From a bacterium (GTDB lineage: Bacteria > Patescibacteriota > Minisyncoccia > Phycocordibacterales > SBAW01): DNA of 64,000 bases. The stretch's first letter is position 1, and each line of letters opens with the position of its first letter. The stretch lies in contig JBAXFJ010000002.1 in NCBI GenBank assembly GCA_037139975.1, forward strand, positions 24,373 to 88,372, in the 5' to 3' direction. The notes under the pieces are model-generated. The model was not told the DNA's origin. It did not search any database and saw only the letters and a program-made list of their open reading frames with translations. Shown one piece after another: positions 17,893 through 53,765 of this stretch. Made by a program: the position numbers and the translations under genes.

Positions 17893-17923
17893 CGTCCCGC
17901 CGAGATGGCGGTGGTTGTTGGCA

Positions 17924-20011: not shown

Positions 20012-20354
20012 GACTACAAAATGAACATTGGTATTATATCGCTTTGTGATTATTGTGCGTTGTTCATTCCTCCGTCCTCACGGCGACCGAGGCGCCCTGC
20101 TATCCGAGCTTTGTGGTAACTCTAACGCTCGCGAACCACACACAACCGCCTACGCATAGCCCGCTCGCATTCGCTCACGCTGGCTGCTTCGGCGTTGCGT
20201 GTGTTCGCTTGGTGGCTTCGAGAGAGTCTTGTGGTGGCTCTAAAGAATATGGGTTGTGCTAGGGGCACAAATAGATCTGTATGTGCTTGCCCCACCCACC
20301 CAGTGCGCACACAAGCCCGCTCGCAAAGACGAGAGGGTACGAGCGGGAGCTCCC

Positions 20355-23300: not shown

Positions 23301-23468
23301 AGTGGGATTGAGAGTATCAATCGCATGCTTCAAGCGATTCCTCAAAACCACCTGTCCCAAATCAGTGCGTTCTAACTCTTGATCCTCCGGCGACAAATAC
23401 TGCCAACCTTGATTTTCCAAAAGCTCGATGACTAATTCTTCAATTGTTGATTCAAATATTTTAGTCAT
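20355..23468 (-). CDS. hsdR: Type I restriction enzyme, R subunit
   Basis: 1037 aa. SF2 helicase motifs (GSGKS-like [15 protein letters not shown] box [11 protein letters not shown]) and an N-terminal nuclease region, typical of HsdR. Confidence 0.9.
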
Positions 23469-23479
23469 AAATTATATTT

Positions 23480-24091
23480 TTACTTGTCATCAATTTCTCT
23501 GTTTTGAAAATCCACCAAAGCTTCTTTGTATGCTTCGTAATCTGTGGCATACAAAACCTTACTTGGTAATAATGTTATTTTACCAAAGGTAATTTTTTCA
23601 TAATCTTCATCAAATGAATCGTTAAAATCTGTATTCTCTTCATATTTGATTTGAATATCAAAAACAGCCTCTCGTATTTCTCTTTCTGATTTTGCTTGCT
23701 CAACTTTTTCAGTATATTCAATCTTTCTTAGGACCGAACGTTTTTCCATCTGGTTTTCTTCATGCTTCTGATAAAACTTTTTAGAAACAAGAGAAAGCCA
23801 CCATACAAACACAAAAGAAGAAGTAAATGGAATTATGAAAAGATGCAAAACACTTAATACATCAAAACGATACATTTGTGCCATGTAATCCACTTTCAGG
23901 ATTTGCTGCGTTTTCAGAATAGTCTCCTGGTCTGCAAAAAATAGTGTATATACAAACTTCCAATTTGTGACAATCCATGAAATAAGAAAATAAAAATACA
24001 TCGGACTAAAAAGTCGGTCTTGTATTATTTCCCCAGCTTTTTCAAAAGCTTTTGAAGTTGTTTCTGTAATTTTTGATAGTGAGTTTTCCAT
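23480..24091 (-). CDS. hypothetical two-TM membrane protein embedded in the Type I R-M operon (function unknown)
   Basis: 203 aa. TM1 SPMYFYFLISWIVTNWKFVYTLFF, TM2 VLSVLHLFIIPFTSSFVFVWWLSLV, then a charged ~100-aa C-terminal domain. 12 bp after hsdR and 4 bp before hsdS. Confidence 0.5.
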   Translation of the reverse strand: MENSLSKITETTSKAFEKAGEIIQDRLFSPMYFYFLISWIVTNWKFVYTLFFADQETILKTQQILKVDYMAQMYRFDVLSVLHLFIIPFTSSFVFVWWLSLVSKKFYQKHEENQMEKRSVLRKIEYTEKVEQAKSEREIREAVFDIQIKYEENTDFNDSFDEDYEKITFGKITLLPSKVLYATDYEAYKEALVDFQNREIDDK

Positions 24092-24094
24092 AAC

Positions 24095-25360
24095 TTAATT
24101 ATTAAACCCTTTAACACGAACCTCACCTTTCATTAATTTTGGCAAAAGGGTATCGCGGAGAGCGGAGAGGGTTTGGATTTGGAAACAATTACCAGATATT
24201 TTTTCCATAATAGGATCTGCTAACATAAAATATTTTTCTAATACACTTTTTGTTGGGATTAAAAAATCAAAATTATTGACATCATTTTTATTGATATGTT
24301 GCTGAGCCCCACCAGTGGCAGTATTTATAATATTTGAGACATTTTCCACCATCCAATAGTAAAGATAAGAAGAAGAAAATTTCTCATTCGGCAAAAGCCC
24401 TATAACTGATTGATTTCCGGCTGACTCAATTTCCAAGCGACTAATTTGCCCAAGAGTTGCTCCAGTAATTGCAATAACAACCGTTCCTTTCGGCATGAGT
24501 TTCGCTGCTGACTCCTCAAGAGCTTTTTTGGTGATATATGCGGATGGTTCATATATTCTAAAATCATTAACCTTTCCAGAATTTATCCAAGGAACTGTTC
24601 CGTCCTCCCAATACTCTTTTTTTTCTGTATTTGGAGTTCCTCCCAAAATTGTTTGTATTTCATCCCCCAACTTCCCAACTATCCATCCCTCTGGAATTTG
24701 GCTGAGTTCTAAATCAATCATTTTGCGGGTAGCACCGGGAAAATTAAAATTTACAAACCACTCTTTAAAAATCACTTGCGCAATAGCTTCAAGGGTTTTG
24801 TTCTGCTCACGTAAAAGCTCAACCTTGCTATCCAAAGACGACAACACTGCCGCAATGACACGCTGTTCGGAGAGTTCAGGAATCGTAAGTGAAAGACCCT
24901 TCAGCTTAGTAATAGTATATGCTTCTTGAGTAGAACCAATTTTTGCATATGATAAAATTTCTTTTCCCTGTGGAGAAACTATCCAATAAAAAAGAAATTT
25001 CGGAAGCAAATCTTTATAGTTTCGGAACCAAGTCAAATTTCCATCTTTAAAATAAAACTTGAGATCTCTTTCCACCAAGTAAGGATTCCCGAGTGTTCCA
25101 ACTGAGGTTAGTAAAATATCATTTTCTTCAGGGACTCCAAAATTATTTTTTATATCATTATATTTTTCTTCAGATATAAATAATTCAGTTGATATATTGT
25201 GTCCATTATATTTTTCTGTAATTTCTTTCCCTCTAAAAAATGGGATACCAAAAGTTTTGTATTCTTCGGCAAAAATCCTCTTTGACGACGTAATCTCTGC
25301 CACCTTTCCCAATGTCGTCATTTTCCAGCCTTTTGGAATTGTAGAAGTTTGATCTGCCAT
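24095..25360 (-). CDS. hsdS: Type I restriction-modification specificity subunit
   Basis: 421 aa with two target-recognition-domain halves separated by conserved repeat regions (LSEQRVIAAVLSSLDSKVELLREQNKTLEAIAQVIFKEWF and LPKLMKGEV). Confidence 0.85.
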   Translation of the reverse strand: MADQTSTIPKGWKMTTLGKVAEITSSKRIFAEEYKTFGIPFFRGKEITEKYNGHNISTELFISEEKYNDIKNNFGVPEENDILLTSVGTLGNPYLVERDLKFYFKDGNLTWFRNYKDLLPKFLFYWIVSPQGKEILSYAKIGSTQEAYTITKLKGLSLTIPELSEQRVIAAVLSSLDSKVELLREQNKTLEAIAQVIFKEWFVNFNFPGATRKMIDLELSQIPEGWIVGKLGDEIQTILGGTPNTEKKEYWEDGTVPWINSGKVNDFRIYEPSAYITKKALEESAAKLMPKGTVVIAITGATLGQISRLEIESAGNQSVIGLLPNEKFSSSYLYYWMVENVSNIINTATGGAQQHINKNDVNNFDFLIPTKSVLEKYFMLADPIMEKISGNCFQIQTLSALRDTLLPKLMKGEVRVKGFNN

Positions 25361-25362
25361 AA

Positions 25363-26910
25363 TTATTCTAAATTAAACCCAACATTTTTGAGTTGTTTTT
25401 TTATTTCTTCATCCAATTTCTTTTCTTCGGCCATCTGCTCTGCGAGTTTAGTGGTCAATCCAGCGATTTTGTCGGCAAACGGAATACCGTCGTCAATTTC
25501 ATCTTCTATACCGACATATCTTCCCGGAGTAAGAACAAAATTATGTTTGGTGATTTCCTCTATGCCCGCTGATTTGCAAAAACCTTTGATGTCTTTGTAT
25601 TTACCATCGCGCTTGCGCCACTCATGATAGGTGCCGGCGACTTTTGCCATATCGTCTTCTGAAAATTCACGGTGTGTTTTGTCTGCCATGTGGCCGACTT
25701 CGCTCGTGTCGATGAAAAGAATTTCTCCTGTGCGCTTCCTGTCGCCATTACCTGTGCGCTTGCGCGAGATAAACCAAATACACGCCGGAATGCCAGTGTT
25801 ATAAAAAAGCTGTTTCGGAAGTGCAACGATACAATCCACCAAATCATTTTCAATCAGTGACTTTCTAATATCACCCTCATTGTTGGTCTGACTGGAAAGT
25901 GAGCCGTTCGCAAGCACACACGCCATTACACCATGTGGTGAGAGGTGGTAGATCATGTGCTGAAGCCACGCATAGTTGGCATTTGAAGCTGGAGGCATAC
26001 CGTATTGCCAACGTGGATCATTTTGGAGAAGTTGCCCAGACCAGTCGCTGTCATTGAAAGGCGGATTTGCTAAGACAAAATCGGCTTTAAGGTCTTTATG
26101 TGTGTCATTCAAAAATGAGCCTTCAGTGTTCCATTTCACTTGTGAGCCATCAATGCCACGAATAGCAAGGTTCATTCGGCACAAGCGGTATGTTGTTTGG
26201 TTACTTTCTTGTCCGTAAATAGAAATATCCTCAACATTTCCTCGATGTTCTTTGATGAATTTTTCACTCATAATAAACATCCCGCCACTACCACAAGCTG
26301 GGTCATATACTCTGCCTTTGTATGGCTCAATCATTTCCACCATGATGCGGACGATTGATTTTGGCGTGTAGAATTGTCCGCCTTTTTTACCTTCAGCGTT
26401 TGCAAATTCACCAAGGAAATACTCATATACTCTACCGAGTAAATCTTTACTTTTTGCCGCTTCGGTACCAAGGGCGATATTGCCGACCATATCAATGAGT
26501 CCGCCAAGCGATGCTTTGTCTAGATTTGGGCGGGCGTATACTTTTGGCAAAATACCTTTGAGTGTCGGATTTTCCTTTTCTATTGCCTCCATGGCGTCGT
26601 CGAGGTCTTTTCCAATAGACGGAAGTTTGGCGCGTGAGTGAAGATATGACCAACGGGCAATTTGCGGAACGAAAAAGACATTTTCTGCGCGATATTCATC
26701 GGCGTCTTCAGGATTCGCTCCATAAAAATCATTACCACCGGCTTTTATCTTTGCATACAACTCTTCAAATGAATCCGAAATGTATTTGAGAAAGATGAGT
26801 CCAAGCACAATATGCTTATATTCTGCAGCGTCCATATTCTTGCGCAACTTATCTGCCGCCTTAAACAGCGTCTTCTCAAATGATTCTGTTTTGTTGTTTT
26901 CTTTTTTCAT
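25363..26910 (-). CDS. hsdM: Type I restriction-modification DNA methyltransferase (N6-adenine)
   Basis: 515 aa. NPPF motif ([12 protein letters not shown]), SAM-binding [10 protein letters not shown], and an HsdM N-terminal domain. Confidence 0.9.
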
Positions 26911-26912
26911 AA

Positions 26913-27110
26913 TTATTTCTGTATCAAGTCATCAACCTTGATTTCGAGTGCCTTGGCTATTTTAGACAAGGTGTCGATTGTGGGGTTTTGATTGACTCCA
27001 TTCTCAATCTTAACAATCGTATTGAGAGACAAATCGGCAAGTCGAGCGACTTTTTCGAGGGAATAGCCTTTTTCGGCTCTGATCTTTTTTAAATTGCTTG
27101 CAATGCTCAT
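26913..27110 (-). CDS. XRE-family helix-turn-helix transcriptional regulator (controller-like, first gene of the R-M operon)
   Basis: 65 aa: [32 protein letters not shown]. It ends 3 nt before the hsdM start. Confidence 0.7.
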
Positions 27111-27203
27111 ATGAAATCTTGTATAATTTAGTATATAGAATATAATATAAATTATGGATTCTTTACATTTAAATCATACCGAATTTATGAGCAAAAGTAA
27201 ATA

Positions 27204-27472
27204 TGAAACGGCGAAGCAAAACCAAAAATTTCCTTTCCATTTCTTTTTCCGCTTCGCGGTGGAGGGGTGGGGGGAGGAGACGCGAGGAAAATGCAAGGAA
27301 ATTTTTTGGTTTTTGCACACGCGAGTCCGCGAGCGTGTCCGAGGCGCATTGGTTCGCTTCACCACTCAATCGGAGCGTACGAGGCAGTTTCAAGTCACCA
27401 CGCGCTCCGCGCGTGCGATTAGTCAGCAGTTGGATTGTTTTGGAAAAAAGTTCGGATTTTGTTCAGGAGACA
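27204..27472 (-). repeat. element X, copy 2 (inverted relative to 19741-20011)
   Basis: See copy 1. The outer end joins a recombinase 3' end through the same ...ggctg|tgtctcctg junction. Confidence 0.85.
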
Positions 27473-27475
27473 CAG

Positions 27476-27606
27476 CCAAAATTCAGAATTCGTTTTTTCG
27501 CCAAAATTCGGAGCGTCGCAAAGCGACGCGACGGGGGTTTCCGCCAGAATTCGCCAAGGGTTTTTGAAATCCAAAAGAAGCGAGCGGGACGCGAGGCGGG
27601 GGTTTA
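27476..27606 (-). repeat. recombinase 3'-end repeat B' (perfect 131-bp inverted copy of 29040-29170)
   Basis: The reverse complement is identical to the last 131 bp of the intact recombinase gene (encoding NPRLASRSLLLDFKNPWRILAETPVASLCDAPNFGEKTNSEFWL). Here it continues in frame into X, giving the tail ...CLLNKIRTFFQNNPTAD. Confidence 0.85.
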
Positions 27607-27689
27607 TGATGAGTACATCATTCAAAACTTCGTTTTGCGAGCCAATCTGGAAGCGAATAACTATCAATATTTAACATAAACTTTTTTCT

Positions 27690-29198
27690 ATGAACAAATT
27701 CTTTCTTTACGCCAGAAAATCTACCGACGAGCCCGATCGTCAGATTTTGAGTATTGAATCGCAGATTGACGAGTTGAAAGAATTTGCAGAGCGAGAGCAG
27801 TTAGAGATTGTTGAAACTTTTGTTGAATCACAGACCGCTAAAGAGCCGGGCAGACCTATTTTCAACAATATGCTCTCGCTCATAGAAAAAGGCAAAGCGT
27901 CGGGAATTTTAGCTTGGCATCCCGATAGATTGGCAAGAAATAGTATTGATGGTGGAAAGATAATCTATCTGTGTGACCTCGGTAAAATTAAAGAGCTAAA
28001 ATTCCCGACATTTTGGTTCGACGCTACGCCACAAGGTAAGTTTATGTTAAATATTGCTTTTGGGCAGAGCAAATACTATGTAGATAATCTTTCAGAGAAT
28101 GTGAAGCGTGGACTTCGCCAAAAAGTAAGACGAGGCGAACAAAGTGGTCAAGCACCGACGGGATATTTGAATGACAAGTTGAACAAGAAAATTGTTCCCG
28201 ACATGGAGAGATTTCGCCTCGTCAAAAAAATGTTCGAAGTCTACGCTACTGGAAATTATTCTCTGAAAGATACGAGGAATTTGCTCGCCCAAAAGGGCTT
28301 GGTGTCTAAAAATGGTAAAGTTCTCACTATTTCAAACACGCAAATGATATTGAGAAATCCTTTTTACTATGGAATGTTTTTATTTAACAAAGAACTTTAC
28401 CAAGGAAAGCACGAGCCAGCGATTTCAAAGAAACTTTTTGATAAATGCGCGGAAGTATCGGCGAGGAATGCTCACCCGATGAAGCGAGGAATTAACAAGC
28501 ATGTTTTTCGCGGAATATTTTTGTGTGAAGAATGCGGTTGTGGCATAACCAGCGAAGTGCAAAAAGGTCATACCTATTATCGTTGTACCAAAAAGAAAGG
28601 TGTCTGCACACAAAAATATATCCGCGAAGAATTCCTCGCCGAACAAGCTAATGACATTATCAAAAAAGTTTCTTTGTCGTCAGAGTGGAAAGAATTCATG
28701 CTCGCTGAACTCGACAAGGAACAAGCGAGCAGTTTCCACTCTGACGCCCTTTTCGTTCAAAATCTGAAAAATCAAATCAAAAGTGTTGAGGAGACGCTAG
28801 ACAGGCTTCTTGACGCTCATTTGGACAGCGCCATTACGAGCGAGGAGTATATCGGGAAGAAGCAAAAACTCCTCAACCAAAAGATTGATTTTTCAGAGAA
28901 ATTGAATGATTTTGAACGAAAAGGTAATCGCTGGCTCGAACTTTCTAAACAATTCATTTTAGACAGTAACCAAGCCATAATTATCGCTTCCGAAGAAAAT
29001 CTCGAAGCCAAAAGAGATTTTCTTAAAAAGATTGGCTCGAACCCCCGCCTCGCGTCCCGCTCGCTTCTTTTGGATTTCAAAAACCCTTGGCGAATTCTGG
29101 CGGAAACCCCCGTCGCGTCGCTTTGCGACGCTCCGAATTTTGGCGAAAAAACGAATTCTGAATTTTGGCTGGGATACAGGGATTCGAACCCCGATTAA
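27690..29198 (+). CDS. large serine recombinase (integrase), full length
   Basis: 502 aa. N-terminal resolvase catalytic domain (YARKSTDEPDRQ...SIESQ), recombinase domain, Cys zinc ribbon (CEECGC...C..C) and a C-terminal coiled-coil. The last 11 codons overlap tRNA-Gln on the opposite strand. Confidence 0.85.
   Translation: MNKFFLYARKSTDEPDRQILSIESQIDELKEFAEREQLEIVETFVESQTAKEPGRPIFNNMLSLIEKGKASGILAWHPDRLARNSIDGGKIIYLCDLGKIKELKFPTFWFDATPQGKFMLNIAFGQSKYYVDNLSENVKRGLRQKVRRGEQSGQAPTGYLNDKLNKKIVPDMERFRLVKKMFEVYATGNYSLKDTRNLLAQKGLVSKNGKVLTISNTQMILRNPFYYGMFLFNKELYQGKHEPAISKKLFDKCAEVSARNAHPMKRGINKHVFRGIFLCEECGCGITSEVQKGHTYYRCTKKKGVCTQKYIREEFLAEQANDIIKKVSLSSEWKEFMLAELDKEQASSFHSDALFVQNLKNQIKSVEETLDRLLDAHLDSAITSEEYIGKKQKLLNQKIDFSEKLNDFERKGNRWLELSKQFILDSNQAIIIASEENLEAKRDFLKKIGSNPRLASRSLLLDFKNPWRILAETPVASLCDAPNFGEKTNSEFWLGYRDSNPD
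29040..29170 (+). repeat. recombinase 3'-end repeat B (partner of 27476-27606)
   Basis: See B'. The copy ends ...ttttggctg, where the last bases are the complement of the tRNA-Gln CCA, discriminator and acceptor end. Confidence 0.85.
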
Positions 29199-29239
29199 AG
29201 GCTTCAAAGGCCTCTGTCCTACCATTAGACGATATCCCA
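29166..29239 (-). tRNA. tRNA-Gln (anticodon UUG), 74 nt with encoded CCA
   Basis: Reverse complement TGGGATATCGTCTAATGGTAGGACAGAGGCCTTTGAAGCCTTTAATCGGGGTTCGAATCCCTGTATCCCAGCCA. U1:A72 acceptor pair typical of tRNA-Gln, 7-bp acceptor stem, D-loop GG, anticodon loop CUUUGAA, T-loop TTCGAAT. Confidence 0.85.
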
Positions 29240-29324
29240 AATTAAAAACACCAGAACAAAACGGCCCAATAACATATAGAGAATAGCAAATATATAGCCT
29301 TTTTGCTATGGTTGGTGGTGTTAT

Positions 29325-35752: not shown

Positions 35753-35807
35753 TTGGGGAGCAGGAGGGGATAGGGCAAAGAAAAGAAAGTATAAAATACA
35801 AATAAAT

Positions 35808-35837
35808 CGAGGCGGCAACAGAAATGTTGCCGCCTCG
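35808..35837. terminator. long-stem bidirectional terminator between the AKR (+) and RTX-like (-) genes
   Basis: CGAGGCGGCAACA-GAAA-TGTTGCCGCCTCG: 13-bp stem with an A/T-rich 5' flank, giving a T-run on the minus strand. Confidence 0.6.
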
Positions 35838-35903: not shown

Positions 35904-37223
35904 TCAGCCTTTGCTGCCGCCGAAAGACGGGGACGGCATCGAAACGACTCTTGCGGCATCGATGCCGGTCACGATACCGGCCATCATCGCTCCTGCGAAT
36001 CCGCCAGCATGACTGATCGCGTCGCCGACGCCGCTGATTTGGACTTCCATCGGCTTGCCGCTGGAGGTCCAATCGAGTGTGAGTGTACCCCACGACACAT
36101 TGACACCGAGGTCGGTCTTGGGATCAAGATGGATCCCCGACAGGTCGAGCTTGTCCCCCTGCTTCACGTTGAAGTCGGTGACGTAGTTGAAGTCGCCGTT
36201 GGACGCCTTGTTCGACAAGAAGAAGGTGTCGGCCCCGGCGCCGCCCGTGAGGGTGTTGCCGTTGACCTCGAGTCGGTCGTTGCCGGCCCCGCCATCGAGG
36301 AAGCTCATCTTGCCGCCATAGAGAATGTCGTTGCCGGCACCTCCTTTTGCAGTGCCACCGACGCCGACGGTCCCGGTGTCGTTGCCGGCACCGAGCAAAA
36401 TCCGGCTGAGATCCCCTGCGGAGACCCAGTCGTTGCCCGCACCGGAGTCGACGTAACTGGCTGCGCCGGTGTTCGGGTCGCCATTGCCGCCAAGTACGAT
36501 GTAGTCTCCGTATTGGCTGCCCCAAACTGTGGCGATGCCCTTGGTTTCGATTGTGCCACCGACTCCGGTCATGGTGACATAGCCGGTGCCATTGCCGCCG
36601 GTCACGACATTGTCGAGACCGGCGATGGTCAGGCTGTAGGAGCCGTCGCCGAAGGTCAGGTCATTGGCGAAACCGTTGATGGTGCCATTGACTTGGCCAT
36701 CGCCGGCTGTGACGTTGTTGGCGAAGCCATCGATGTCGAATGTGTTGTTGCCATCTCCGACTTTGACATGGTAGCCGAAGCTGTTTGAGTTGGTGGTGAT
36801 GGAATTGTTCCCATCGCCGACGGTGATTTTGCCGAAGGTTCCTCCAAGCCAAAGGTTTCCGTCGCCATCGCCGATCCGGGCGGTGGTGAAGATCCCGTTG
36901 TCGTTTACCGAGTCAGTGCCGTCACCGATCTTGATGGTTGAATAGACTGCACCCGTGTTGACAGAGGTATTGTCGTTGCCGTCACCAGCGGTCCACGAGT
37001 TGTGAACGCCGGAGTCGCTCAGGCTGGCGTTGCCGTCACCGGTGATGCCGGTGATGCTCCGCCCGCTGAAGTCGAAATACGTCGATGCGAAACCACTGAC
37101 TTCGATGGAGTTATTCGCTCCCGAGACTTGGAGGAAAGCAAAGGTATCGTCCCATGGATTCCCATGGATTCCCATGAAGCCGAATTTGTACTTTCCGCCA
37201 GACGTGGTGATGTTCTGGTACAT
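35904..37223 (-). CDS. RTX-like Gly/Asp-rich calcium-binding repeat protein (probable T1SS-type secreted protein)
   Basis: 439 aa with no N-terminal signal peptide. Many GDG / GGxGxD nonapeptide-like repeats (GGAGNDILYGG, GGAGNDRLEVNG, GGAGADTFF) and a C-terminal DFNVKQGDKLDLSGI motif resembling T1SS substrates. Confidence 0.6.
   Translation of the reverse strand: MYQNITTSGGKYKFGFMGIHGNPWDDTFAFLQVSGANNSIEVSGFASTYFDFSGRSITGITGDGNASLSDSGVHNSWTAGDGNDNTSVNTGAVYSTIKIGDGTDSVNDNGIFTTARIGDGDGNLWLGGTFGKITVGDGNNSITTNSNSFGYHVKVGDGNNTFDIDGFANNVTAGDGQVNGTINGFANDLTFGDGSYSLTIAGLDNVVTGGNGTGYVTMTGVGGTIETKGIATVWGSQYGDYIVLGGNGDPNTGAASYVDSGAGNDWVSAGDLSRILLGAGNDTGTVGVGGTAKGGAGNDILYGGKMSFLDGGAGNDRLEVNGNTLTGGAGADTFFLSNKASNGDFNYVTDFNVKQGDKLDLSGIHLDPKTDLGVNVSWGTLTLDWTSSGKPMEVQISGVGDAISHAGGFAGAMMAGIVTGIDAARVVSMPSPSFGGSKG
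37150..37176. repeat. 10-bp tandem repeat (tcccatggat x ~2.7) inside the 5' end of the RTX-like gene
   Basis: Direct observation. It encodes MGIHGNPWD. The unit length is not a multiple of 3. Confidence 0.7.
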
Positions 37224-37378
37224 CTGTAGTTCCTTTATTCTATTCTGTTGTCAGGTCTGCTCGAGACATTTCGGGCAGATGGCATGGGCCTTTGCAAATT
37301 TAGCATAATACTATGCAAATGTCAAGTCTCATGTTGGTATGTGCCTGAGTGCTCTAGCGCTGTGTTTTTATGGTCTTT

Positions 37379-38143: not shown

Positions 38144-38177
38144 ATGTTATTCAAATTTACTTTTTGTTTTTTCAAAT

Positions 38178-39050
38178 TTATTCAAATTTGAACCGCTCGG
38201 CATATTTAAGCAATTTTTGCCACACAAACAGGTTGAGTAACGAGATTGCTGCCACCATCACAACGATGGCGACAAGGAACGTATGCTGCTCGCCCAGCGC
38301 TGATGCGTTAACCAAGACACTACCGATGCCGAAAAGGTCTGATGAAGCGCCTGCGCCGGGCAACCCTGCTGAAGCGGGTGGTAAACCCGTCGTGGTGACT
38401 GGCAGGTATGTATGCAAAACTTCTGCCACGATGACGATGTTCCAGCCTGATGCCCACGCCAACAGCGAGCCAGTGACCAGGTAGGGAACCGACGCGGGGA
38501 GGAGGATTTTTTGAATATATGAAAAGCCAGAGAGGCCAAAGATTTTTCCCGCGTCCTTGATGTCTTCAGGAATGGAGTGGAGTCCGCCCACGAGCGAAAA
38601 GACAATGCTCCACAACATAGTGATGAAAAGGATGAAAATCGCAGCTAATTCATAGAGGCCGTAGTGCACAAAAAAGATTGCAATAATAGGGAAAAAGGCC
38701 AAAACAGGGAGTGACTGCATGATGTCAAAAAAGGGCAAAAGCACTCGTTCGGCCATTTTGTTATGGGTGACTGCAAGTGCCAGTGGGAGCGCCACGGCAA
38801 GTGCGAGCAGGTATGAAGCAACAAGGCGCAGCAACGTTGCCCCAAGTGCTGCGAATACAACACCCACGCTCAGTTGGTTTGGGTTATGTGCGTGTGTGGT
38901 GCCAAACCACTGCACGAGCACAAACACGGCTGCCAGCGTAAGCAGGGGCAGCAGCAACAGCCTGTAGACACGCTGCGACAGCGACGTTGGATAGCTGATG
39001 CGCATATGGTGTGCCTGTCGACTGACGTGGTGCTGAGTGCTCATGTTCAT
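38178..39050 (-). CDS. ABC transporter permease (binding-protein-dependent inner-membrane component)
   Basis: 290 aa with 6-7 TM helices and an EAA-like loop region (IPEDIKDAGKIFGLSGFSYIQKILLP). Confidence 0.7.
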   Translation of the reverse strand: MNMSTQHHVSRQAHHMRISYPTSLSQRVYRLLLLPLLTLAAVFVLVQWFGTTHAHNPNQLSVGVVFAALGATLLRLVASYLLALAVALPLALAVTHNKMAERVLLPFFDIMQSLPVLAFFPIIAIFFVHYGLYELAAIFILFITMLWSIVFSLVGGLHSIPEDIKDAGKIFGLSGFSYIQKILLPASVPYLVTGSLLAWASGWNIVIVAEVLHTYLPVTTTGLPPASAGLPGAGASSDLFGIGSVLVNASALGEQHTFLVAIVVMVAAISLLNLFVWQKLLKYAERFKFE

Positions 39051-42652: not shown

Positions 42653-43273
42653 ATGATTTATAGAAACAAGTCTGACCTTCTGCGAACGCACATAAAAAGT
42701 AACGATGTTGTTTTGGATATTGGTTTTCTTGGTCAGGGAATTAAAGAAGATGACCAGAAATGGCCGCACTTTATAATTAAAGAGGTTGCCGCAGATGTCT
42801 ACGGAATTGATTTAGGAATTTCACCAGAATACAAGCAAGATCCCCATTACATGGAGGCCAGTGCTGAAAATTTCTCTTTTCCTCTCAAGTTTGACGTTAT
42901 TTTTGCAGGAGATCTTATTGAGCATCTTTCGAATCCGGGACTTTTTTTGAGTTGTTGCAAAGAGCAACTTAAACCCAATGGTAGACTTATTCTTACAACT
43001 CCAAATGTTTTCAACCTTTTCAATTTAACTGAAAAGCTTACAAAGCGAGAGCCTACGGTTAATCCAGACCATACCTTTTATTTTAATAGTAAAACACTGC
43101 TTAAGCTTCTCGAAAAAAATGGGATAAAAGCAAATGAAGTAAGTTTTCTCTATACTCTTGAGTATGAACACAAGGAGAGTTGGAAAAAAAAGTTATTAAA
43201 TGCGATGTACGCATTTCTGGCAATTTTTACAGATAAATTTATTGAGACTCTAGTAATTGTAGCAACTTTATGA
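42653..43273 (+). CDS. class I SAM-dependent methyltransferase (type 11-like)
   Basis: VLDIGFLGQG (motif I), FDVIFAGDLIEHL and NGRLILTTPN. The gene is markedly AT-rich compared with its neighbours. Confidence 0.65.
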   Translation: MIYRNKSDLLRTHIKSNDVVLDIGFLGQGIKEDDQKWPHFIIKEVAADVYGIDLGISPEYKQDPHYMEASAENFSFPLKFDVIFAGDLIEHLSNPGLFLSCCKEQLKPNGRLILTTPNVFNLFNLTEKLTKREPTVNPDHTFYFNSKTLLKLLEKNGIKANEVSFLYTLEYEHKESWKKKLLNAMYAFLAIFTDKFIETLVIVATL

Positions 43274-45030
43274 AAAAACTTTTCACGCTGCTTTTTGGTA
43301 TTGGTTTCTTATTAATCCCAACCGCGTCAGCCTATGCGCTTTCTCCAAGCTTGAGTTCGGGGCTTGTATCGTATTGGAAGTTAGATGAGGTGAGCGGAAA
43401 TGCTGCTGACGCAACAAGCACAAATACGCTCTTAAACAACAACTCTGTTATTTATGTTAGTGGAAAATTCCATAACGCAGCCAGTTTCGATGGACTAAGC
43501 TCTCAATCACTCTCAATTTCAGACACCTCACAGTCTGGACTAAACTTTGCTTCTGGCGCGCCATTTTCATTTGGCTTTTGGATGAAAGCTGCACTTCCAA
43601 CAGATGGTTTTGACAAAGCGGTTTTTTCAAAGATTAATACAGGTGGTGGTTACTCGCTTAGTTTGGAAAATGGCGGTTGGCCACATGCTCGAATAGGCTC
43701 TCTTCTGCTTCAGAATGAAATATCTCCTCAGAGCTCAACATACAGCGATCATATCTATGGCGCGCCTTCAACATTGAACGATAATCTTTGGCACCATGTT
43801 GTAGTAACGTATGATGGTTCGTTGGTAACAATGTACGTTGATGGAACAAAGGTTGTAGATAGGATTGTTGGAGCTATTAGTGGTTCTTCCACGGAAGATT
43901 TTATGTTGGGTTTTGGTGTTGCTAAGGGAGCACACGACTACTTTGATGGACAACTTGACGAAGTGGGAGTGTGGGGGAGGGCGCTGTCGGACAGCGATGT
44001 AACGGATTTGTATAATAGCTACGCAAACACAGCGCCCACGGCGAGTGGGGCGTCACTTTCGACCAACGAGGATACGGGTTTGTCCATTACATTGCCCGGG
44101 TCGGATGTTGACGGTGACACGTTGTCGTTTGCAACGACGAGCAATCCCACACACGGCACATTGAGCACTCTGGTGGGCAGCACGACCATCTACACACCTG
44201 ACGCAAACTATAACGGAACGGATTCTTTTGACTATGTTGTTGGTGATGGCCTCGCAACCACTTCTTCTGCGACGGTGAGCCTAACCATCAATGCGGTGAA
44301 TGATCCGCCAATTCTGGTCCCAATCAGCAGTCAGACAGCAACTTCGGGCGACACAGTTATTTTTACTGCCACATCAACAGATGTTGACGGGGGTGCGCCC
44401 ATCTACAGTATCGCCTCGAGCTCGGTTGGGACTTCGGCGGCAACCATCGACTCCACAACAGGGGCATTCTCGTGGGTGACGACAGGTGTTGCTGCAGGAA
44501 GCTATACTTTTACTATTTCGGTGAGCGATGGCTCGGCAGTTGCGACCACAACAGCAAGTATCGCGATTTTGACTAGCCTCGTGCCTCCTGCCCCTACGCC
44601 CACTCCTCCTGTGTCACCAACTCCTGGGGCAAGTGGTGGAGGGGTTATTGGTGGAGGCTCGCTTTCGGTTGGATATAAAAACGTGGCGAACTTTGTTAAT
44701 TTGAAACCGTCCACAACGAGCGGTCTAGCTGCTATTCAAAAAGCACTTCCTCCAATCGTAGCTCCTCAAACACCGCCCGAATCTCCAGTTGCAACCAAAA
44801 CGTCTGCCGCGCCTGTTGCAATCGCTCCGCCAGTACAAGTATCAAATCCGCAAAGTGAAATTGTTTCAGCAAATTCTCCACAAAACTTGTTGACGAGCAC
44901 AAACAGCAATCAGCTTGCGTCTCCTGTGGCAAGCGGTTTTAACTTTCATGTGCCACTGTGGGTGTGCGGTGTTGGGGCCACTGCAGCCGCGGGTGTTGGC
45001 GCGTGGTGGTGGCTTGGATTGGCGCTTTAA
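43270..45030 (+). CDS. cell-surface protein: signal peptide, LamG/concanavalin-A-like lectin domain, cadherin-like/Ig-like repeats, Pro-rich stalk and C-terminal TM anchor
   Basis: LVSYWKLDEVSGNAADATS...GKFHNAASFDG...WHHVVVTYDGSLVTMYVDG is Laminin_G_3-like. ANTAPTASGASLSTNEDTGLSITLPGSDVDGDTLSF...INAVNDPP is a cadherin-like tandem repeat. The C-terminus LWVCGVGATAAAGVGAWWWLGLAL is a TM anchor. Confidence 0.65.
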   Translation: MKKLFTLLFGIGFLLIPTASAYALSPSLSSGLVSYWKLDEVSGNAADATSTNTLLNNNSVIYVSGKFHNAASFDGLSSQSLSISDTSQSGLNFASGAPFSFGFWMKAALPTDGFDKAVFSKINTGGGYSLSLENGGWPHARIGSLLLQNEISPQSSTYSDHIYGAPSTLNDNLWHHVVVTYDGSLVTMYVDGTKVVDRIVGAISGSSTEDFMLGFGVAKGAHDYFDGQLDEVGVWGRALSDSDVTDLYNSYANTAPTASGASLSTNEDTGLSITLPGSDVDGDTLSFATTSNPTHGTLSTLVGSTTIYTPDANYNGTDSFDYVVGDGLATTSSATVSLTINAVNDPPILVPISSQTATSGDTVIFTATSTDVDGGAPIYSIASSSVGTSAATIDSTTGAFSWVTTGVAAGSYTFTISVSDGSAVATTTASIAILTSLVPPAPTPTPPVSPTPGASGGGVIGGGSLSVGYKNVANFVNLKPSTTSGLAAIQKALPPIVAPQTPPESPVATKTSAAPVAIAPPVQVSNPQSEIVSANSPQNLLTSTNSNQLASPVASGFNFHVPLWVCGVGATAAAGVGAWWWLGLAL

Positions 45031-45535: not shown

Positions 45536-46654
45536 ATGTTTGAAATTGCCATACTTGTACTTTTGCTCGCAAATTTGGCGTTGGTCGGCTATTTTCTTTT
45601 TATCCGCTCAAATGCGCAACCAACACAAGCAACAGTGCAAGACACCCAGGGGATGCTTCTGCTCCAAAACCAGCTCGCCGAGCTGACCCGCGCAATGGAC
45701 TCCAAATTGGGCGAGGGGACAAGGAATATGTCTGACTTCATGTCCTCTCAGTCAACCCAGATCAGCCAGCAGTCCGACCAGGCCCGTGCGCTCATGGCGA
45801 CCATCACCAAACAGGTGAGTGAACAGCTCATCGAGGTGGTCAAGGGTGTGACCCAAACTCAAGAGTCGACCAAACAAGTGTTCGTCATTGCAGAACAGCT
45901 CTCGAACCTTGAGAAAGTACTCAAAAATCAAAAACAACGCGGCAATTTGGGCGAGGCAAGCCTCGAGCTCGTCATGAGCAACATCCTCCCGCCCGGCGCC
46001 TACCAGATGCAGTATGAGTTCCCGGGTGGCGAGACGGTCGACGCCATCATCCGCACTAAAGAAGGGTTCATTCCGGTTGATGCAAAGTTCCCGCTCGAAA
46101 ACTACACGCGCATCCATGATGAAAAAGACGATGTGCGCCGAGTTGAATTCGAAGAGGCGTTTAAACGCGACCTCAAAAAACGCATCGACGAGACGAGTAA
46201 GTATGTGCGCCCCAAGGACGGCACGCTCCCGTTTGCGTTCATGTACATCCCCGCCGAAGGGATCTACTACGACCTGCTCAACGACGGCATAGGCGCGGTC
46301 AATACGCGCAGCTTGCTTGACTATGCGCAGAATGAGAAGAAAGTGATAATCGTTTCGCCCACAACCTTTGCGGCCTACTTGCAATCAGTACTCTACGGCT
46401 TCAAAGCGTTTAAAATAGAAGAACAAGCAAAAGATATTGCCAAGAATGTCGAGCAGCTCGGCCGGCACCTCAATGCGTATCAGGATTATTACAAAAAGCT
46501 GGGTGCGTCGCTTGCCACAACGGTGAATCATTACAATGCTGGGACGAAAGAGTTAGGCAAAATCGAAAAAGATGTTTTAAAAATAGACGCCTCAGCCGAA
46601 ATAGCCATTGACGTCGCCGTGCTCGACAAGCCACTCTTGGAGGGGAAGGATTAG
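45536..46654 (+). CDS. rmuC: DNA recombination protein RmuC
   Basis: N-terminal TM, a long coiled-coil, and the conserved C-terminal segment PVDAKFPLENY...FMYIPAEGIYYDLL...VSPTTFAAYLQSV. Confidence 0.8.
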   Translation: MFEIAILVLLLANLALVGYFLFIRSNAQPTQATVQDTQGMLLLQNQLAELTRAMDSKLGEGTRNMSDFMSSQSTQISQQSDQARALMATITKQVSEQLIEVVKGVTQTQESTKQVFVIAEQLSNLEKVLKNQKQRGNLGEASLELVMSNILPPGAYQMQYEFPGGETVDAIIRTKEGFIPVDAKFPLENYTRIHDEKDDVRRVEFEEAFKRDLKKRIDETSKYVRPKDGTLPFAFMYIPAEGIYYDLLNDGIGAVNTRSLLDYAQNEKKVIIVSPTTFAAYLQSVLYGFKAFKIEEQAKDIAKNVEQLGRHLNAYQDYYKKLGASLATTVNHYNAGTKELGKIEKDVLKIDASAEIAIDVAVLDKPLLEGKD

Positions 46655-46697
46655 TGTGGTACTCTGTCAGTATTATTTGTTAAAATCGTTTTTCATA

Positions 46698-47306
46698 ATG
46701 AAATTTCAAAAGAATCCGCCTTTGTTCATAGGCATAGGAATCGCTTTTGTAGTGTTGTGTGGGTTGTTGTTTTGGAAATACAGTAATGATTCACTCTACG
46801 CGCTAAAAAGCGGCACGATTGTGGCTGCAAATTGCGGAGACGTTTCTCTCAAAGTCTACTGGGCTTACAAAGATTATCCGGGCATCGATCAAGGACGTGG
46901 GAATGAAAAATTACAATTGCTTTACGAAAAGGGCGACTCAGAACAAATTCTTTTACCTAGCCTAAGTAATCCCGATCTCACCGATCCAGTCATAGGAAGC
47001 GCTGATAGTAATCACTATTCACCACTTCCTTCGGGTGGCAGTGTGCCGGTTACATCTATTACTTCAATCGAAAAGGTTGACCAAGGCTCTGCTGTTATTC
47101 CACTCAACATTTTTGTTGATCCAAAGGTTTCCTCTCAACAAGATTTCAAAGATTTGTCACAGTGCTTGGTTTCTCATAGCGGTGATATAGAAGCAGCTCT
47201 CGGAAAAGCAAAAGATATGATTAAAGGCAATCCTTCAGGAAGCAATCAGTACAAGATTGTTGGACTTGCATATACTAACGAATACGACTTCTTGAACAAG
47301 AAATAA
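46698..47306 (+). CDS. hypothetical signal-anchored protein
   Basis: Start at MKFQKNPPLFIGIGIAFVVLCGLLF (a TM segment). ~200 aa, AT-rich gene. Confidence 0.4.
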   Translation: MKFQKNPPLFIGIGIAFVVLCGLLFWKYSNDSLYALKSGTIVAANCGDVSLKVYWAYKDYPGIDQGRGNEKLQLLYEKGDSEQILLPSLSNPDLTDPVIGSADSNHYSPLPSGGSVPVTSITSIEKVDQGSAVIPLNIFVDPKVSSQQDFKDLSQCLVSHSGDIEAALGKAKDMIKGNPSGSNQYKIVGLAYTNEYDFLNKK

Positions 47307-47346
47307 TTTGCTTTTTTGAGGCTTATTGGGTATAGTCTTTCTACCT

Positions 47347-47736
47347 ATGACAACGAAAGAAACAGCCCCAAAGGCCAAGAAAACTCTTAAAAAAGGCGGG
47401 TTTGCGGTAATCGCAACCGGCGGCAAGCAGTATATTGTTGCAGAAGGCGACTTGCTGAAAATCGAGAAGATAAAGAAGCCAGTTGTTGGCAATGGTCGCC
47501 CCGAGTTCCAGGTGGGCGACCCGGTGGTGTTTGAAAACGTGCTTCTGACCGACAATGGCCAGGATACCACGATCGGCATGCCCTACATCGCCGGCGCCAA
47601 AGTCTCGGCCGAGATCACCAAGATCAACCGCGCAAAGAAAGTGACCGTCATCAAATACAAAGCAAAGAGCAACTATTTTAAAAAGCGCGGCCATCGCCAA
47701 CCTTTCTTTGAGGTAAAAATTACGAAGCTTGCGTAA
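47347..47736 (+). CDS. rplU: 50S ribosomal protein L21
   Basis: FAVIATGGKQYIVAEGDLLKIEKI matches the L21 N-terminus (AVI.TGGKQY.V.EGD). A short basic N-terminal extension precedes it. Confidence 0.85.
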   Translation: MTTKETAPKAKKTLKKGGFAVIATGGKQYIVAEGDLLKIEKIKKPVVGNGRPEFQVGDPVVFENVLLTDNGQDTTIGMPYIAGAKVSAEITKINRAKKVTVIKYKAKSNYFKKRGHRQPFFEVKITKLA

Positions 47737-47818
47737 GGGTTCGCAAAAAGCTTCTTTCACAAAGGTCCTCGGATCTCCTCGCTACGCTCGGCCAGACCGT
47801 TTGCTCAAGAACTTTTTG

Positions 47819-48451
47819 CTACCCTCTTGAATTCAGTGCGCTCTCAATAGTATCGGGGTCGGCATATTCAAGTTCGCTGCCTGTTGAGAGGCCGCGGCCA
47901 AGGGACGAGATTTTAAAATTGAGGCCTTGTGCAATAGGAAGAAGTTTTTCTTGGAGAATTAGTCGTGTATGGTCGCCTTCGCTGGTTGCCGAAAGGCCCA
48001 AAATCACTTCTTGTAGGTTTGAATGAGTTATCGAGAGTTCTGATGCTTTTTGCTCCACCCGTCGCAAGAGCTCGCGCAAACGAATGTGCTTTTCAGGCTC
48101 TTCGCTGGCCAAGGCAATGGTGCCACCAAGCACAAAATAGACACCTTTGAAGCCCGAGCGCTCAACGTTTTCTATATCAGCATCTTTTTCGACTATAAAC
48201 AAAATAGTTCGATCGCGGCGAGTATTGCTGCAAATACTGCATGCGTCGGCCTTGCTTGCGGTGCGCACAAACCAACGGAAGCACTCTTTGCACTGCGCTG
48301 TCGTGCTGCCCAGTGCGCGGATATACTCGGCAAGCTCAGCACGCACGCTTGGGTTGGTTGCAAGGAGGTATTGCACAAAACGTCGTGCTTGGCGTGGCCC
48401 AATGCCTGGGAAGCGTTCAAAGAGGTTGGCGAGTGATTCAATAGGATTCAT
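47819..48451 (-). CDS. recR: recombination protein RecR
   Basis: FPGIGPRQARRFV (HhH), C4 zinc finger CKECFRWF...CSIC, and a Toprim domain ILFIVEKDADIENVE. Confidence 0.9.
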   Translation of the reverse strand: MNPIESLANLFERFPGIGPRQARRFVQYLLATNPSVRAELAEYIRALGSTTAQCKECFRWFVRTASKADACSICSNTRRDRTILFIVEKDADIENVERSGFKGVYFVLGGTIALASEEPEKHIRLRELLRRVEQKASELSITHSNLQEVILGLSATSEGDHTRLILQEKLLPIAQGLNFKISSLGRGLSTGSELEYADPDTIESALNSRG

Positions 48452-48453
48452 AT

Positions 48454-49845
48454 TTAGAAGTCGGTAATGTCAGCGTTTTTTTCCATAGTCATGAATGTGG
48501 TGCGCTTGTCGTCGAAGTAAAGCTCAACCGAGCCCGTGGGGCCGTTGCGGTGCTTTTCAACCATAATTTCAGCAATATTATTGCGTTCAGCGCTCTCACT
48601 CATCTTGTCTTCGCGGTGGATAAACATCACCACGTCGGCGTCTTGCTCGATGGAGCCCGAGTCACGCAGGTCCGAGAGGCGCGGCTTGCCGCGGCGTTGT
48701 TCGACGGCACGCGACAGCTGTGAGAGGGCGATGACGGGCACATCAAGTTCGCGCGCGAGGATTTTGAGTGAGCGAGAGATCTCAGTGACTTGCTGCACCA
48801 AGGAGTCCGAGGCGCGCGCACCTGTTGGCACCATCAGCTGCAAGTAGTCAACAATCAAGAGCCCGAGGCCGTTTTCACGCTTCAGGCGGCGGGCGGTGGC
48901 ACGCATCTTGAGGATGTTAGTGCCCGGTTGGTCGTCGATAAAGATGGGCGCTTGGCCCAAGCGGTCGTATGCCTCGCGGATGCGGCCCCAGTCTTCTTGG
49001 TCTGTGATGCGGCCGGTGCGTAGGTTCCATGAGTTGACGCGTGACTCGGCGGCAACCATGCGGTCGACCAGCTGCTGTGCGCTCATTTCAAGCGAGAAGA
49101 TGCCCACCGTGGTGCCGTGCGCCACCGCAGTCTGACGGGCGATGTCGAGCGCAAGCGCCGTTTTACCCATTGATGGGCGCGCCGCGAGGATAATAAGGTC
49201 AGACTTCTGGAAACCTGCGAGCAAGTTGTCGAGGTCACGGAAACCTGAACGCACACCGCGCAATTCGTCTTTATTTTCCTGCAGATATTCAAGCCGCGCC
49301 CAGGCTTCGGTTAGTGTCTCGCGCAGTGAAGTAAACTTTGAAAGTGTTGGACTGGAGGTGACGTCGAGCACCAGTTTTTCTGCCTTGTCGAGCGTTTCGT
49401 CAATGTCGTCAGCTTCGTTGTGGCCAAGTTCTGCCACATATTCGCCCGCGTCGATGAGCGAGCGTAGCATATATTTTTTCTGCACCTGTCCGGCATAGTG
49501 TCGTGCGTTGCTGGCGGCGGGGACTTCGCTGGCGAGTTCAGCCAGATACGTGATGCCGCCAACGCCCTCAAGCTGGCTTTGGTCTGCCAGGCTCGCACGT
49601 ACCGTTTCGATGTCCACTGGCTCGTTCTTGCCATAGAGCGCGAGCATGACGCGGTAGATCATCCGGTGCTTCTCTGCATAAAACGCATCAGGCGAGAGGA
49701 TGTCGCTCACCTCAATCATGCCTTCAGGGCGAATCAGAAGTGCGCCAAGCAGCGCTTTCTCGGTTTCAATGGTCTGCGGTGGCATGCGCAGCGGGTCATG
49801 TTTTTTTACTGGTTGTTTGGGTGCAAATTTTCCTGTTTCTGCCAT
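48454..49845 (-). CDS. dnaB: replicative DNA helicase DnaB
   Basis: Walker A ARPSMGKTALAL, Walker B LLIVDYLQLM, and an N-terminal DnaB domain PPQTIETEKALLGALL. Confidence 0.9.
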   Translation of the reverse strand: MAETGKFAPKQPVKKHDPLRMPPQTIETEKALLGALLIRPEGMIEVSDILSPDAFYAEKHRMIYRVMLALYGKNEPVDIETVRASLADQSQLEGVGGITYLAELASEVPAASNARHYAGQVQKKYMLRSLIDAGEYVAELGHNEADDIDETLDKAEKLVLDVTSSPTLSKFTSLRETLTEAWARLEYLQENKDELRGVRSGFRDLDNLLAGFQKSDLIILAARPSMGKTALALDIARQTAVAHGTTVGIFSLEMSAQQLVDRMVAAESRVNSWNLRTGRITDQEDWGRIREAYDRLGQAPIFIDDQPGTNILKMRATARRLKRENGLGLLIVDYLQLMVPTGARASDSLVQQVTEISRSLKILARELDVPVIALSQLSRAVEQRRGKPRLSDLRDSGSIEQDADVVMFIHREDKMSESAERNNIAEIMVEKHRNGPTGSVELYFDDKRTTFMTMEKNADITDF

Positions 49846-49927
49846 GTCCCAATACTAGCGCGCCGCCTCAATAAACGAAAGTTGGACAGCTTGGTGGACA
49901 AAACGGGGATAGCTTTGTCTTGTTTTA

Positions 49928-51391: not shown

Positions 51392-51429
51392 AGTGTCTGG
51401 TTGAGAATATGAGTTAAATATCTTTTTAT

Positions 51430-52422
51430 TTAGAGCCATTTGCGGTACTTGAAGTAGACGAAGAAAGAAAGAGCCAACGCACCCATGAGTCCTAAGACCA
51501 TCCAAAAGTCGCCAGGCAGCCCGACGATGGGCGTGCTGTGGGTATTCATACCAAAGATGCTCGAAATGAGCGAGAGCGGAAAGGTCACAAACGCCATCAT
51601 GGTGAGTGTCTTCATGATTTCATTTTGCTTGGTTGAGAGGAGCGAATTGTTGGTCTCACGCAGCTCATCAAGCGAATCATGCAGGTTTTCAAGCCGACGC
51701 AGGACGCGTTCATAGGTGCCGACCAGCTCGCGCATGTGGTAGGAAAACTCCGCACCAAAAAACTTTGCTCCAACAGGTTCAAGAGAGTTGAGTGTTTCTT
51801 CGTGTGAAAGGAGCGCCTGACGAAAATGGTGAATCACACGCCCCACGTCTGAGATCTGGGCGACCATGCGGCGTTCGTCGCCCGAAAAGACATGGTCTTC
51901 AATGTCGTGGAGGCGTCGGCGCACGGTGTCTGACTCGGCGCCCAGAGCAAGGTAAAAGGCGCGTGCCATTGCGATGAAAATGTGTCCTCCATGAGTGATA
52001 GTGGCGTCTTTTCCCAAAACAGTGTCTGCGTCAAATGCTTTTGCAAAATTATGCAACGGGTCAACATTTTCATAACGAGTAGTAATGAGAAAGTTTTTGC
52101 CGATCAAAAAGTCAATTTCGTGTTCGTGGTGTTGGTGCGCCCCACGCAGAACAGGGAAGTGCAGTATCAGATAGATGAGTTCGCCCCTTTTCTCTACTTT
52201 TGGACGAAATGAAGGCAAAAGCAATTCTTCAGCAAGTGTGGAGTCGATTTTGAACTCATCCATCAACCCGCGCACCTCGGCGGGCGAGGGTGAGACGATG
52301 TCTATCCACAAAACATTTCGACGCACATGCCGCGTGACCATACGCCATAAAGTATAGCACTGTAAAAGTGCGCGCGTGGCACAGCGTGGTATACTTTGTG
52401 CATATGAAATTGCTGCAAACAA
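51430..52422 (-). CDS. corA: magnesium/cobalt transporter CorA
   Basis: C-terminal two TM helices with the FGMNT (GMN) motif, and a cytoplasmic N-terminal domain. Confidence 0.8.
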   Translation of the reverse strand: MFAAISYAQSIPRCATRALLQCYTLWRMVTRHVRRNVLWIDIVSPSPAEVRGLMDEFKIDSTLAEELLLPSFRPKVEKRGELIYLILHFPVLRGAHQHHEHEIDFLIGKNFLITTRYENVDPLHNFAKAFDADTVLGKDATITHGGHIFIAMARAFYLALGAESDTVRRRLHDIEDHVFSGDERRMVAQISDVGRVIHHFRQALLSHEETLNSLEPVGAKFFGAEFSYHMRELVGTYERVLRRLENLHDSLDELRETNNSLLSTKQNEIMKTLTMMAFVTFPLSLISSIFGMNTHSTPIVGLPGDFWMVLGLMGALALSFFVYFKYRKWL

Positions 52423-53669: not shown

Positions 53670-53693
53670 GTCAGTAGAGTTGTATATACAAAA

Positions 53694-53729: not shown

Positions 53730-53765
53730 TGCTACACTTTTTATATAGCCTTTTCGATTATTTCT

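Follow-up and report, generated by a model that had tools for sequence, protein, structure and literature searches.

A 10-bp tandem repeat in a rare RTX-like gene: probably a fixed micro-duplication rather than a phase-variable switch

The window (the whole 64-kb stretch of DNA that was analysed) contains a gene for a glycine-rich, RTX-like protein with a short tandem repeat in its first codons. The repeat unit is 10 bp long, which raises the question of whether the repeat is a slipped-strand switch that turns a surface or secreted protein on and off, as a first-pass annotation had proposed, or a fixed feature of an intact gene. The reading favored here, with a probability of roughly 0.6, is that the tract is a micro-duplication that became fixed in a tolerant loop, and that the gene is intact and encodes a rare, compact RTX-like beta-solenoid resembling regions RIV and RV of MpIBP. 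Low-rate slippage at the tract is possible. The gene, its signals and the tract lie on the minus strand as follows.

35904..37223, minus strand: intact open reading frame of a lineage-restricted RTX-like beta-solenoid protein, ATG start, 439 aa
37297..37325, minus strand: sigma-70-like promoter, TTGACA, 17-nt spacer, TAAATT, with TG before the -10 hexamer
37231..37235, minus strand: Shine-Dalgarno-like (SD) AAGGA, 7 nt 5' of ATG1 (-12 to -8), read from the sequence
35798..35837, minus strand: intrinsic terminator, 13-bp stem with 9 G-C pairs, 4-nt loop and T-rich tail
37150..37176, minus strand: perfect decanucleotide tandem repeat found by TRF, ATGGGAATCC x2.7 on the coding strand, gene nt 48-74

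The intact reading frame of 439 aa is as it had been annotated. The promoter-like site is a consensus match alone (10 of 12 positions in the scan), and the terminator, which begins 67 nt past the stop codon, was also found as an inverted repeat. Since the two flank the reading frame, the gene looks monocistronic, and promoter, SD, reading frame and terminator would form a self-contained transcription unit. An Rfam search returned nothing near or above threshold for a regulatory RNA, and the decamer tract has no slippery heptamer; therefore a regulatory RNA or recoding explanation was dropped.

The tract is confirmed by TRF with a period of 10, 2.7 copies, 100% matches, a score of 54 and a plus-strand unit of TCCCATGGAT. 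On the coding strand its 27 nt read C-ATGGGAATCC-ATGGGAATCC-ATGGGA and begin at the third position of codon 16 and end at the second position of codon 25. The decamer is thus read in three frames in turn, giving the residues F16-M-G-I-H-G-N-P-W-D25. The tract has three palindromic CCATGG cores and three ATGs, one in each frame, rather than overlapping ATGs in two frames as had been noted. The cores can pair in a small hairpin, with a fold of -8.1 kcal/mol and a z-score of only -1.8.

The repeat exceeds what chance would give. When the window was scanned for perfect tandem repeats with periods of 4-30 and a minimum of 12 lag matches, this tract alone came up, with 17 lag matches; the 40 second-order Markov shuffles all stayed below 14. 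In a TRF run on the full window no second perfect array appeared. Because the tract is unique in the window and unmatched in the shuffles, it is a genuine product of replication slippage. The decamer was also considered as a dispersed motif; this was rejected, as the window holds three matches elsewhere at no more than one mismatch against 3.2 expected.

The tract lies inside the coding sequence, since conserved residues are found on both sides of it. When the protein is aligned from Met1 with its two full-length homologues (P0001 and P0020), residues M1, G10, Y12 and G15 are invariant in all three, and T6 and F14 are common to the query and P0001. Past the tract, W24, D26, T27, F28 and A29 are common to the query and P0001, with A29 invariant in all three. 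The segment from G15 to W24 cannot be aligned with the homologues and differs from them in length by -1 and +3 codons. In the AF2 model the lowest confidence of the N-terminal half falls on residues 11-30 (pLDDT 66-75), the stretch that contains the loop encoded by the repeat. In this lineage the tract is probably fixed, in frame, in a poorly conserved and length-variable loop between the first two strands of the N-cap.

A gain or loss of one unit does shift the frame, as had been predicted. Simulated alleles with 0.7, 1.7, 3.7 and 4.7 copies are truncated at 30, 64, 40 and 74 aa, respectively. In principle the tract could slip again, and a step of one unit in either direction would leave the 40- or 64-aa product. 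Each expanded allele keeps one of the repeat ATGs in register with the 423 codons downstream; this ATG has no convincing SD. A period-10 run requires at least one 10-bp slippage and the gene is in frame; therefore there must have been an out-of-frame intermediate or a compensating indel. This implies that frame-changing events happened at the decamer tract at least once. With fewer than three copies, the tract would be expected to slip as often as an ordinary short direct repeat does, and not at the rate of a contingency locus.

The protein has a mass of 44.3 kDa and a pI of 4.19, with 20% Gly, 9% each of Asp, Asn, Thr and Ser, and no Cys. The lack of a signal peptide is borne out by an N-terminus with a mean hydropathy of -0.64 over the first 25 residues; the sole hydrophobic window is at residues 403-430. 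The N-terminus belongs to the fold in the AF2 model, where residues 1-15 form two confident strands. The richness in GDG and GGxGxD repeats also stands, with nine G[DN]G anchors at a spacing of 18-20 residues and three canonical GGxGxD motifs. Three zones can be told apart after the N-terminal cap.

36510..37061, minus strand: residues 55-238, about ten coils of 18-20 residues with an (h-x-h)GDGNN-type turn on one edge
36210..36509, minus strand: residues 239-338, RTX nonapeptide zone, from the motif listing and PF00353, where most phmmer matches align
35907..36209, minus strand: residues 339-439, C-cap with a ...TDFNVKQGDKLDLSGI motif, from secondary structure and alignment conservation

The first zone is predicted to be a one-sided Ca2+ beta-roll like MpIBP region IV, with Ca2+ bound along one edge of the coils. 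In the second zone the canonical nonapeptides GGAGNDILY, GGAGNDRLE and GGAGADTFF (residues 294, 311 and 327) alternate with non-canonical turns, and degenerate nonapeptides read GGNGDPNTG, SGAGNDWVS and LGAGNDTGT. The C-cap, which would be of the serralysin/MpIBP-RV type, is built from a sheet of three strands and two short helices rich in Gly and Ala, and its disordered tail closes with a conserved KG. It is a candidate for an uncleaved C-terminal secretion signal. The acidic D-x-L-x-L-S-like C-terminus that had been described was misplaced: DKLDLS occupies residues 357-362, 77 residues before the end, and the true C-terminus (...VVSMPSPSFGGSKG) is not acidic. In this architecture the N-terminal cap would be followed by some ten coils, each with one GDGNN-type turn, then by a short GGxGxD run and the C-cap.

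The AF2 model, built from the three-sequence alignment, has a pLDDT of 89.2 and a pTM of 0.85 and is nearly all beta-strand. The predicted fold is the parallel beta-roll or beta-solenoid of RTX proteins. Foldseek against the PDB returned mostly RTX proteins (PrtC/serralysin, RsaA, AlgE R-modules, MIS38 lipase and CyaA) and also beta-helix relatives, among them alginate epimerases and lyases, all with weak scores (best E 4e-3, TM 0.2-0.3). The three-member alignment, used as a profile against the PDB, had no match. Searches with curated RTX profiles, which had been suggested as a check, all scored under their cut-offs: 13.7 bits against 23 for Pfam PF00353 (HemolysinCabind), 15.7 against 17.6 for TIGR03661 (T1SS_VCA0849, a T1SS C-terminal target domain) and 23 against 625 for NF046115 (SMc04171 Ca-repeat family). 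The TIGR03661 match is confined to residues 348-364 and covers only positions 3-19 of the 91 in the profile. Neither P0001 nor P0020 has a Pfam match at E <= 0.01.

The closest architectural parallel is with MpIBP, the ice-binding RTX adhesin of Marinomonas primoryensis. Its region RIV is an atypical roll of 19-residue turns (XGTGND-XUXU-GGXUXG-XUX) with Ca2+ on one edge only, and in the RV that follows, four canonical nonapeptides are joined by a C-cap that bears the T1SS signal (PMC6891781). Like RIV-RV (PDB 3P4G; RV 5JUH), the protein has coils of 18-20 residues, about 19 on the whole, with one Ca2+-type turn per coil, and after the coils come, in the same order, a few canonical nonapeptides and a C-cap. 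The turn is xGDGNN here and xGTGND in MpIBP, sequence identity is 19%, and no T1SS genes are nearby. The protein is a stand-alone chain of 439 aa, whereas the MpIBP regions are the C-terminal end of a 1.5-MDa adhesin. The regular Thr/Asx array (xGTGND) of MpIBP is absent, as the turns read GDGNN, GDGTD or GDGDG, and Asp takes the place of the ice-binding-array Thr in eight of the nine coils. Given this change in the T-x-N array, ice binding does not follow from the resemblance.

The C-terminal RTX domains of serralysin, PrtC and alkaline protease (PDB 1GO7, 1KAP, 1SAT) are the top Foldseek matches, with probabilities of 0.72-1.00 but E-values only of 4e-3 or weaker and TM-scores of about 0.22. 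In both, GGxGxD nonapeptides precede GGAGADTFx...DFxxGxDKLDLS and a C-cap made of beta-sheet. The protein differs in having no protease domain and in that every second nonapeptide turn is degenerate, so that the canonical turns are not consecutive; PF00353 stays sub-threshold. The S-layer protein RsaA of Caulobacter crescentus (PDB 6P5T, 5N8P) is a larger, L-shaped protein of 1026 aa with an LPS-binding N-terminal domain, and leaves the cell via the RsaDEF T1SS. For the present protein, neither sequence nor predicted fold points to a lattice or to high abundance, and its codon bias is unlike that of the ribosomal proteins.

The protein family is very rare: two very large protein libraries yielded three members. 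P0001 was the only full-length relative in an indexed search of 5.8 billion clusters (53% identity, on a 2-kb ENA contig), and an exhaustive phmmer search of 1.84 billion representatives added only P0020 (38-40% identity, on a 547-kb contig from landfill metagenome sample 3300037810). At these identities both homologues, which lack the repeat, are distant. The other phmmer matches (335 at E <= 1e-3) cover mainly residues 250-420, the RTX and C-cap part, and link it to hundreds of proteins, most of which carried a PF00353 annotation in the earlier indexed search. No orthologue was found in 185,579 GTDB species genomes, which gave only distant RTX C-terminal matches. JGI metagenomes searched with the peptide patterns NPWDDTFA and GDGDGNLW gave no relative; these patterns lie just downstream of the tract and would catch any repeat-number allele.

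The protein also has features associated with T1SS substrates, being acidic, Cys-free and Gly-rich with no N-terminal signal peptide. In phmmer, residues 370-420 align with the C-terminal ends of many RTX-annotated proteins; the TIGR03661 target-domain score stays below its cut-off. By analogy, we infer that the Asp/Asn-rich GDGNN and GGxGxD turns bind Ca2+ and that folding is Ca2+-driven. Export would most likely use the uncleaved C-terminal signal, and the protein would then fold outside the cell on Ca2+ and serve a structural or adhesive role, either at the surface or extracellularly. The initial assignment as an RTX-like, T1SS-type or surface protein therefore stands in part: the fold, the RTX neighbors, the phmmer links and the acidic, Cys-free composition support it, but the Pfam and TIGR03661 thresholds were missed. 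No T1SS ABC, MFP or TolC genes are present in the window or in about 3 kb beyond its high-coordinate end, in agreement with the earlier observation that none is adjacent. The same holds for ABC exporter, HlyD-type and TolC genes in 17 kb around the P0020 gene. Because the profile thresholds were missed and no transporter is linked, the protein is filed as one that works like an RTX/T1SS-type substrate, not as a demonstrated member.

Several other explanations of the tract were considered. Short tandem repeats are prone to mis-assembly, but an assembly or sequencing artefact is almost certainly the wrong explanation here, as the 27-nt tract is comfortably shorter than the reads and is identical in two independent public assemblies from different pipelines: ENA assembly ERZ4222710, contig NODE_24 (SPAdes-style, 173.8 kb, about 65x coverage), and a Logan contig from SRR12676966. 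It is also very unlikely that the three decamers are a protein-binding or restriction-modification-related DNA element within the gene instead of a consequential slippage product. The 10-bp spacing would set the three CCATGG cores on one helix face, and the window also encodes a type I R-M system; against this, the rest of the window shows no enrichment of the decamer, the P0020 (L066) homologue does not conserve it, and a cognate binding protein is not known. The tract may also be the scar of a rescue, in which an indel in the N-terminal loop inactivated the gene and the 10-bp duplication restored the frame, leaving a compensatory mutation that is now fixed. The frame cannot survive a 10-bp step alone, and the unalignable G15-W24 segment with its length differences and the structural tolerance of the loop all fit such a history. 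Its steps cannot be reconstructed, P0020 being too distant, and this origin is regarded as unlikely. Together with the earlier indel the net change would be +9 or +12 nt. A rescue would be a specific origin that agrees with the fixed micro-duplication favored here.

The explanation that bears directly on the opening question is a true contingency locus, in which slipped-strand mispairing changes the unit number often and toggles a surface protein. The gene would be ON at 2.7 or 5.7 copies and OFF at 1.7, 3.7 or 4.7. As in simple sequence repeat (SSR) contingency loci such as Neisseria opa (CTCTT) and Haemophilus lic/mod (tetranucleotides), the repeat is intragenic, has a unit that is not a multiple of three and sits at the 5' end (codons 16-25) of a probable surface or secreted protein gene, so that a change in unit number alters the product. 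The 40- and 64-aa products, a tract far beyond chance, an in-frame state that would need a history of at least two frame-changing events, and palindromic cores that could stabilize slipped intermediates also speak for it. However, those loci typically have at least 5 copies of 1-5-nt units, compared with 2.7 copies of a 10-nt unit here. The PhasomeIt cut-off is at least 5 copies for tetranucleotide, pentanucleotide and longer units (PMC6321876), which puts the decamer outside the hypermutable range, and timeline entries in another paper give the switching rate as set by repeat number (PMC11868660). The window has no further SSR-type tract in its 64 kb; therefore the genome does not look SSR-prone. 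The tract and the encoded protein are identical in the window, ERZ4222710 and SRR12676966, and none of these near-clonal assemblies varies in tract length. The ENA contig differs from the window by 5 SNPs over the roughly 60 kb compared, none of them in the RTX-like gene. Since the assemblies are near-clonal and a consensus hides minority alleles, the missing variation is a weak test. Neither the 423-aa product expected from the in-frame repeat ATG of +1 and +2 unit alleles nor the 233-aa product of the downstream reading frame in -1 and -2 unit alleles is on record among 153 billion gene positions. A cluster look-up gave no length variants, in a collection from which the query itself is absent. 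The repeat is also not conserved: the P0020 DNA has no tandem repeat at the locus, and the first 50 residues of P0001 or P0020 could not be encoded with even 18 nt of period-10 DNA. The first-pass annotation had named the lack of the repeat in a homologue, next to constant repeat number in deep reads, as grounds for giving up the switch, and both known homologues lack it. A contingency locus is therefore improbable, and the proposed phase-variation switch is unsupported. A bolder form of the proposal, in which the decamer is a working switch with an unusually long unit and an unusually low copy number that toggles a compositionally foreign RTX-like surface protein, is highly improbable. The host it supposes is an uncultivated, reduced-genome bacterium, possibly of the Patescibacteria/CPR, which may lack an outer membrane and a canonical T1SS; therefore export would, on that proposal, take a non-canonical route.

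If the fixed micro-duplication is the right reading, the locus is a clean example of a very rare family in which the RIV-plus-RV architecture is condensed into a 44-kDa stand-alone protein. The protein falls under every curated RTX/T1SS threshold tried (Pfam, NCBIfam), which makes it useful for improving the profiles, and it raises the question of how such a protein leaves the cell where T1SS genes are unlinked. The repeat itself would matter only if length heterogeneity appeared at the level of reads; in that case SSR phase variation would reach both decamer units and an uncultivated lineage.

The window neighbors include TypA/BipA, an aldo-keto reductase and a GlcD-like FAD oxidase, and the adjacent ABC pair is an importer-type BPD_transp_1 permease with its ATPase. 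The RTX-like gene is at a different place in the query and P0020 genomes, which share local synteny elsewhere (Flavodoxin_2, YchF, DUF5671 and LeuRS). A literature search on DUF5671 found no papers.

The RTX-like gene is also a compositional outlier, with a GC3 of 0.75 against 0.43-0.66 in its neighbors and 0.38-0.61 in ribosomal proteins (L21 0.61, L9 0.38, L27 0.47). A highly expressed, S-layer-like gene was considered as the source of this value and rejected, since the ribosomal proteins do not have a matching bias and the bias is therefore not linked to expression. A foreign origin or a repeat-driven composition is possible. The P0020 gene has the same pattern, with a GC3 of 0.77 against 0.44-0.62 in its own genome.

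The window contains a low-GC island at 17500-29300 (GC 38-44%). A type I R-M system is encoded within the island and is flanked on both sides by a 297-nt inverted repeat. The island also carries two recombinase genes, one of which, encoding a serine recombinase, is bracketed by a perfect 132-nt inverted repeat.

Repeats and genes of the low-GC island
17570-17772 and 19540-19742: direct repeat, 87%
18567-19796: second recombinase gene
19715-20011 and 27204-27500: arms of the 297-nt inverted repeat, 96% complementary
20355-23468: HsdR, type I R-M
23480-24091: 203-aa ORF between HsdR and HsdS
24095-25360: HsdS, type I R-M
25363-26910: HsdM, type I R-M
27473-27604 and 29040-29171: arms of the 132-nt inverted repeat
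27690-29198: serine recombinase gene
29166-29239: tRNA-Gln, adjoined by the serine recombinase gene

The island could represent an element that integrated at tRNA-Gln, an invertible segment, or both. For recombinational switching it is a stronger candidate than the decamer, the 10-bp x2.7 tandem repeat near the start of the RTX-like gene (37150-37176) that the first-pass annotation had put forward as a phase switch. When the window is compared with the near-clonal ENA contig (ERZ4222710, NODE_24), four of the five differences fall in one 79-nt stretch (45847-45925) inside the RmuC gene and the fifth, at 29024, is inside the recombinase gene; the remainder of the 60 kb is identical. The cluster in the RmuC gene looks like local recombination or a variant patch.

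The RTX-like gene itself (35904-37223, minus strand) is a compositional outlier with a GC of 0.59 and a GC3 of 0.75, compared to a GC3 of 0.43-0.66 in the neighbouring genes and 0.38-0.61 in the ribosomal proteins. Its homologue on a landfill metagenome contig (L066 8001-9416, 38-40% identical) has a GC3 of 0.77 against 0.44-0.62 in its own genome. The two genes occupy different genomic positions despite other local synteny in common. A foreign origin or mobility of the RTX-like gene is possible. The gene also has a second short repeat at 37039-37057, which is a perfect in-frame 9-bp x2.1 tandem repeat (coding strand: CATCACCGG) encoding I-T-G-I-T-G at residues 57-62; in 64 kb, chance alone should yield runs this long. 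An AT-rich, imperfect period-10 array, TTATTCAAAT (38147-38189; 4.2 copies, 64% matches), lies where the 3' end of an ABC permease gene meets the start of an ATPase gene.

The gene at 43270-45030 encodes a 586-aa protein with Laminin_G_3, Big_9/Cadherin-like and He_PIG domains, which is probably a second surface or adhesion protein besides the RTX-like protein. The two genes are 6 kb apart.

Window positions 46000-64000, taken together with the DNA record L068, contain numerous small ORFs without Pfam hits, and no biosynthetic operons were found among ~70 genes. Such a set of genes points to an uncultivated bacterium with a reduced genome. The window portion includes DUF8128 (61728-63095) and DUF5671 (56230-57255), the latter being common in Patescibacteria/CPR. 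The leucyl-tRNA synthetase gene (57259-60126) has a product of 951-955 aa. Since a precomputed NUDIX match (PF00293) falls between its two tRNA-synt_1 segments, the NUDIX region appears to be an inserted domain. The gene at 60199-61275 encodes a 358-aa protein with an N-terminal Sigma70_r4 domain (residues 30-84) and a HARE-HTH domain (residues 239-295); for a sigma-like factor, this domain layout is unusual.
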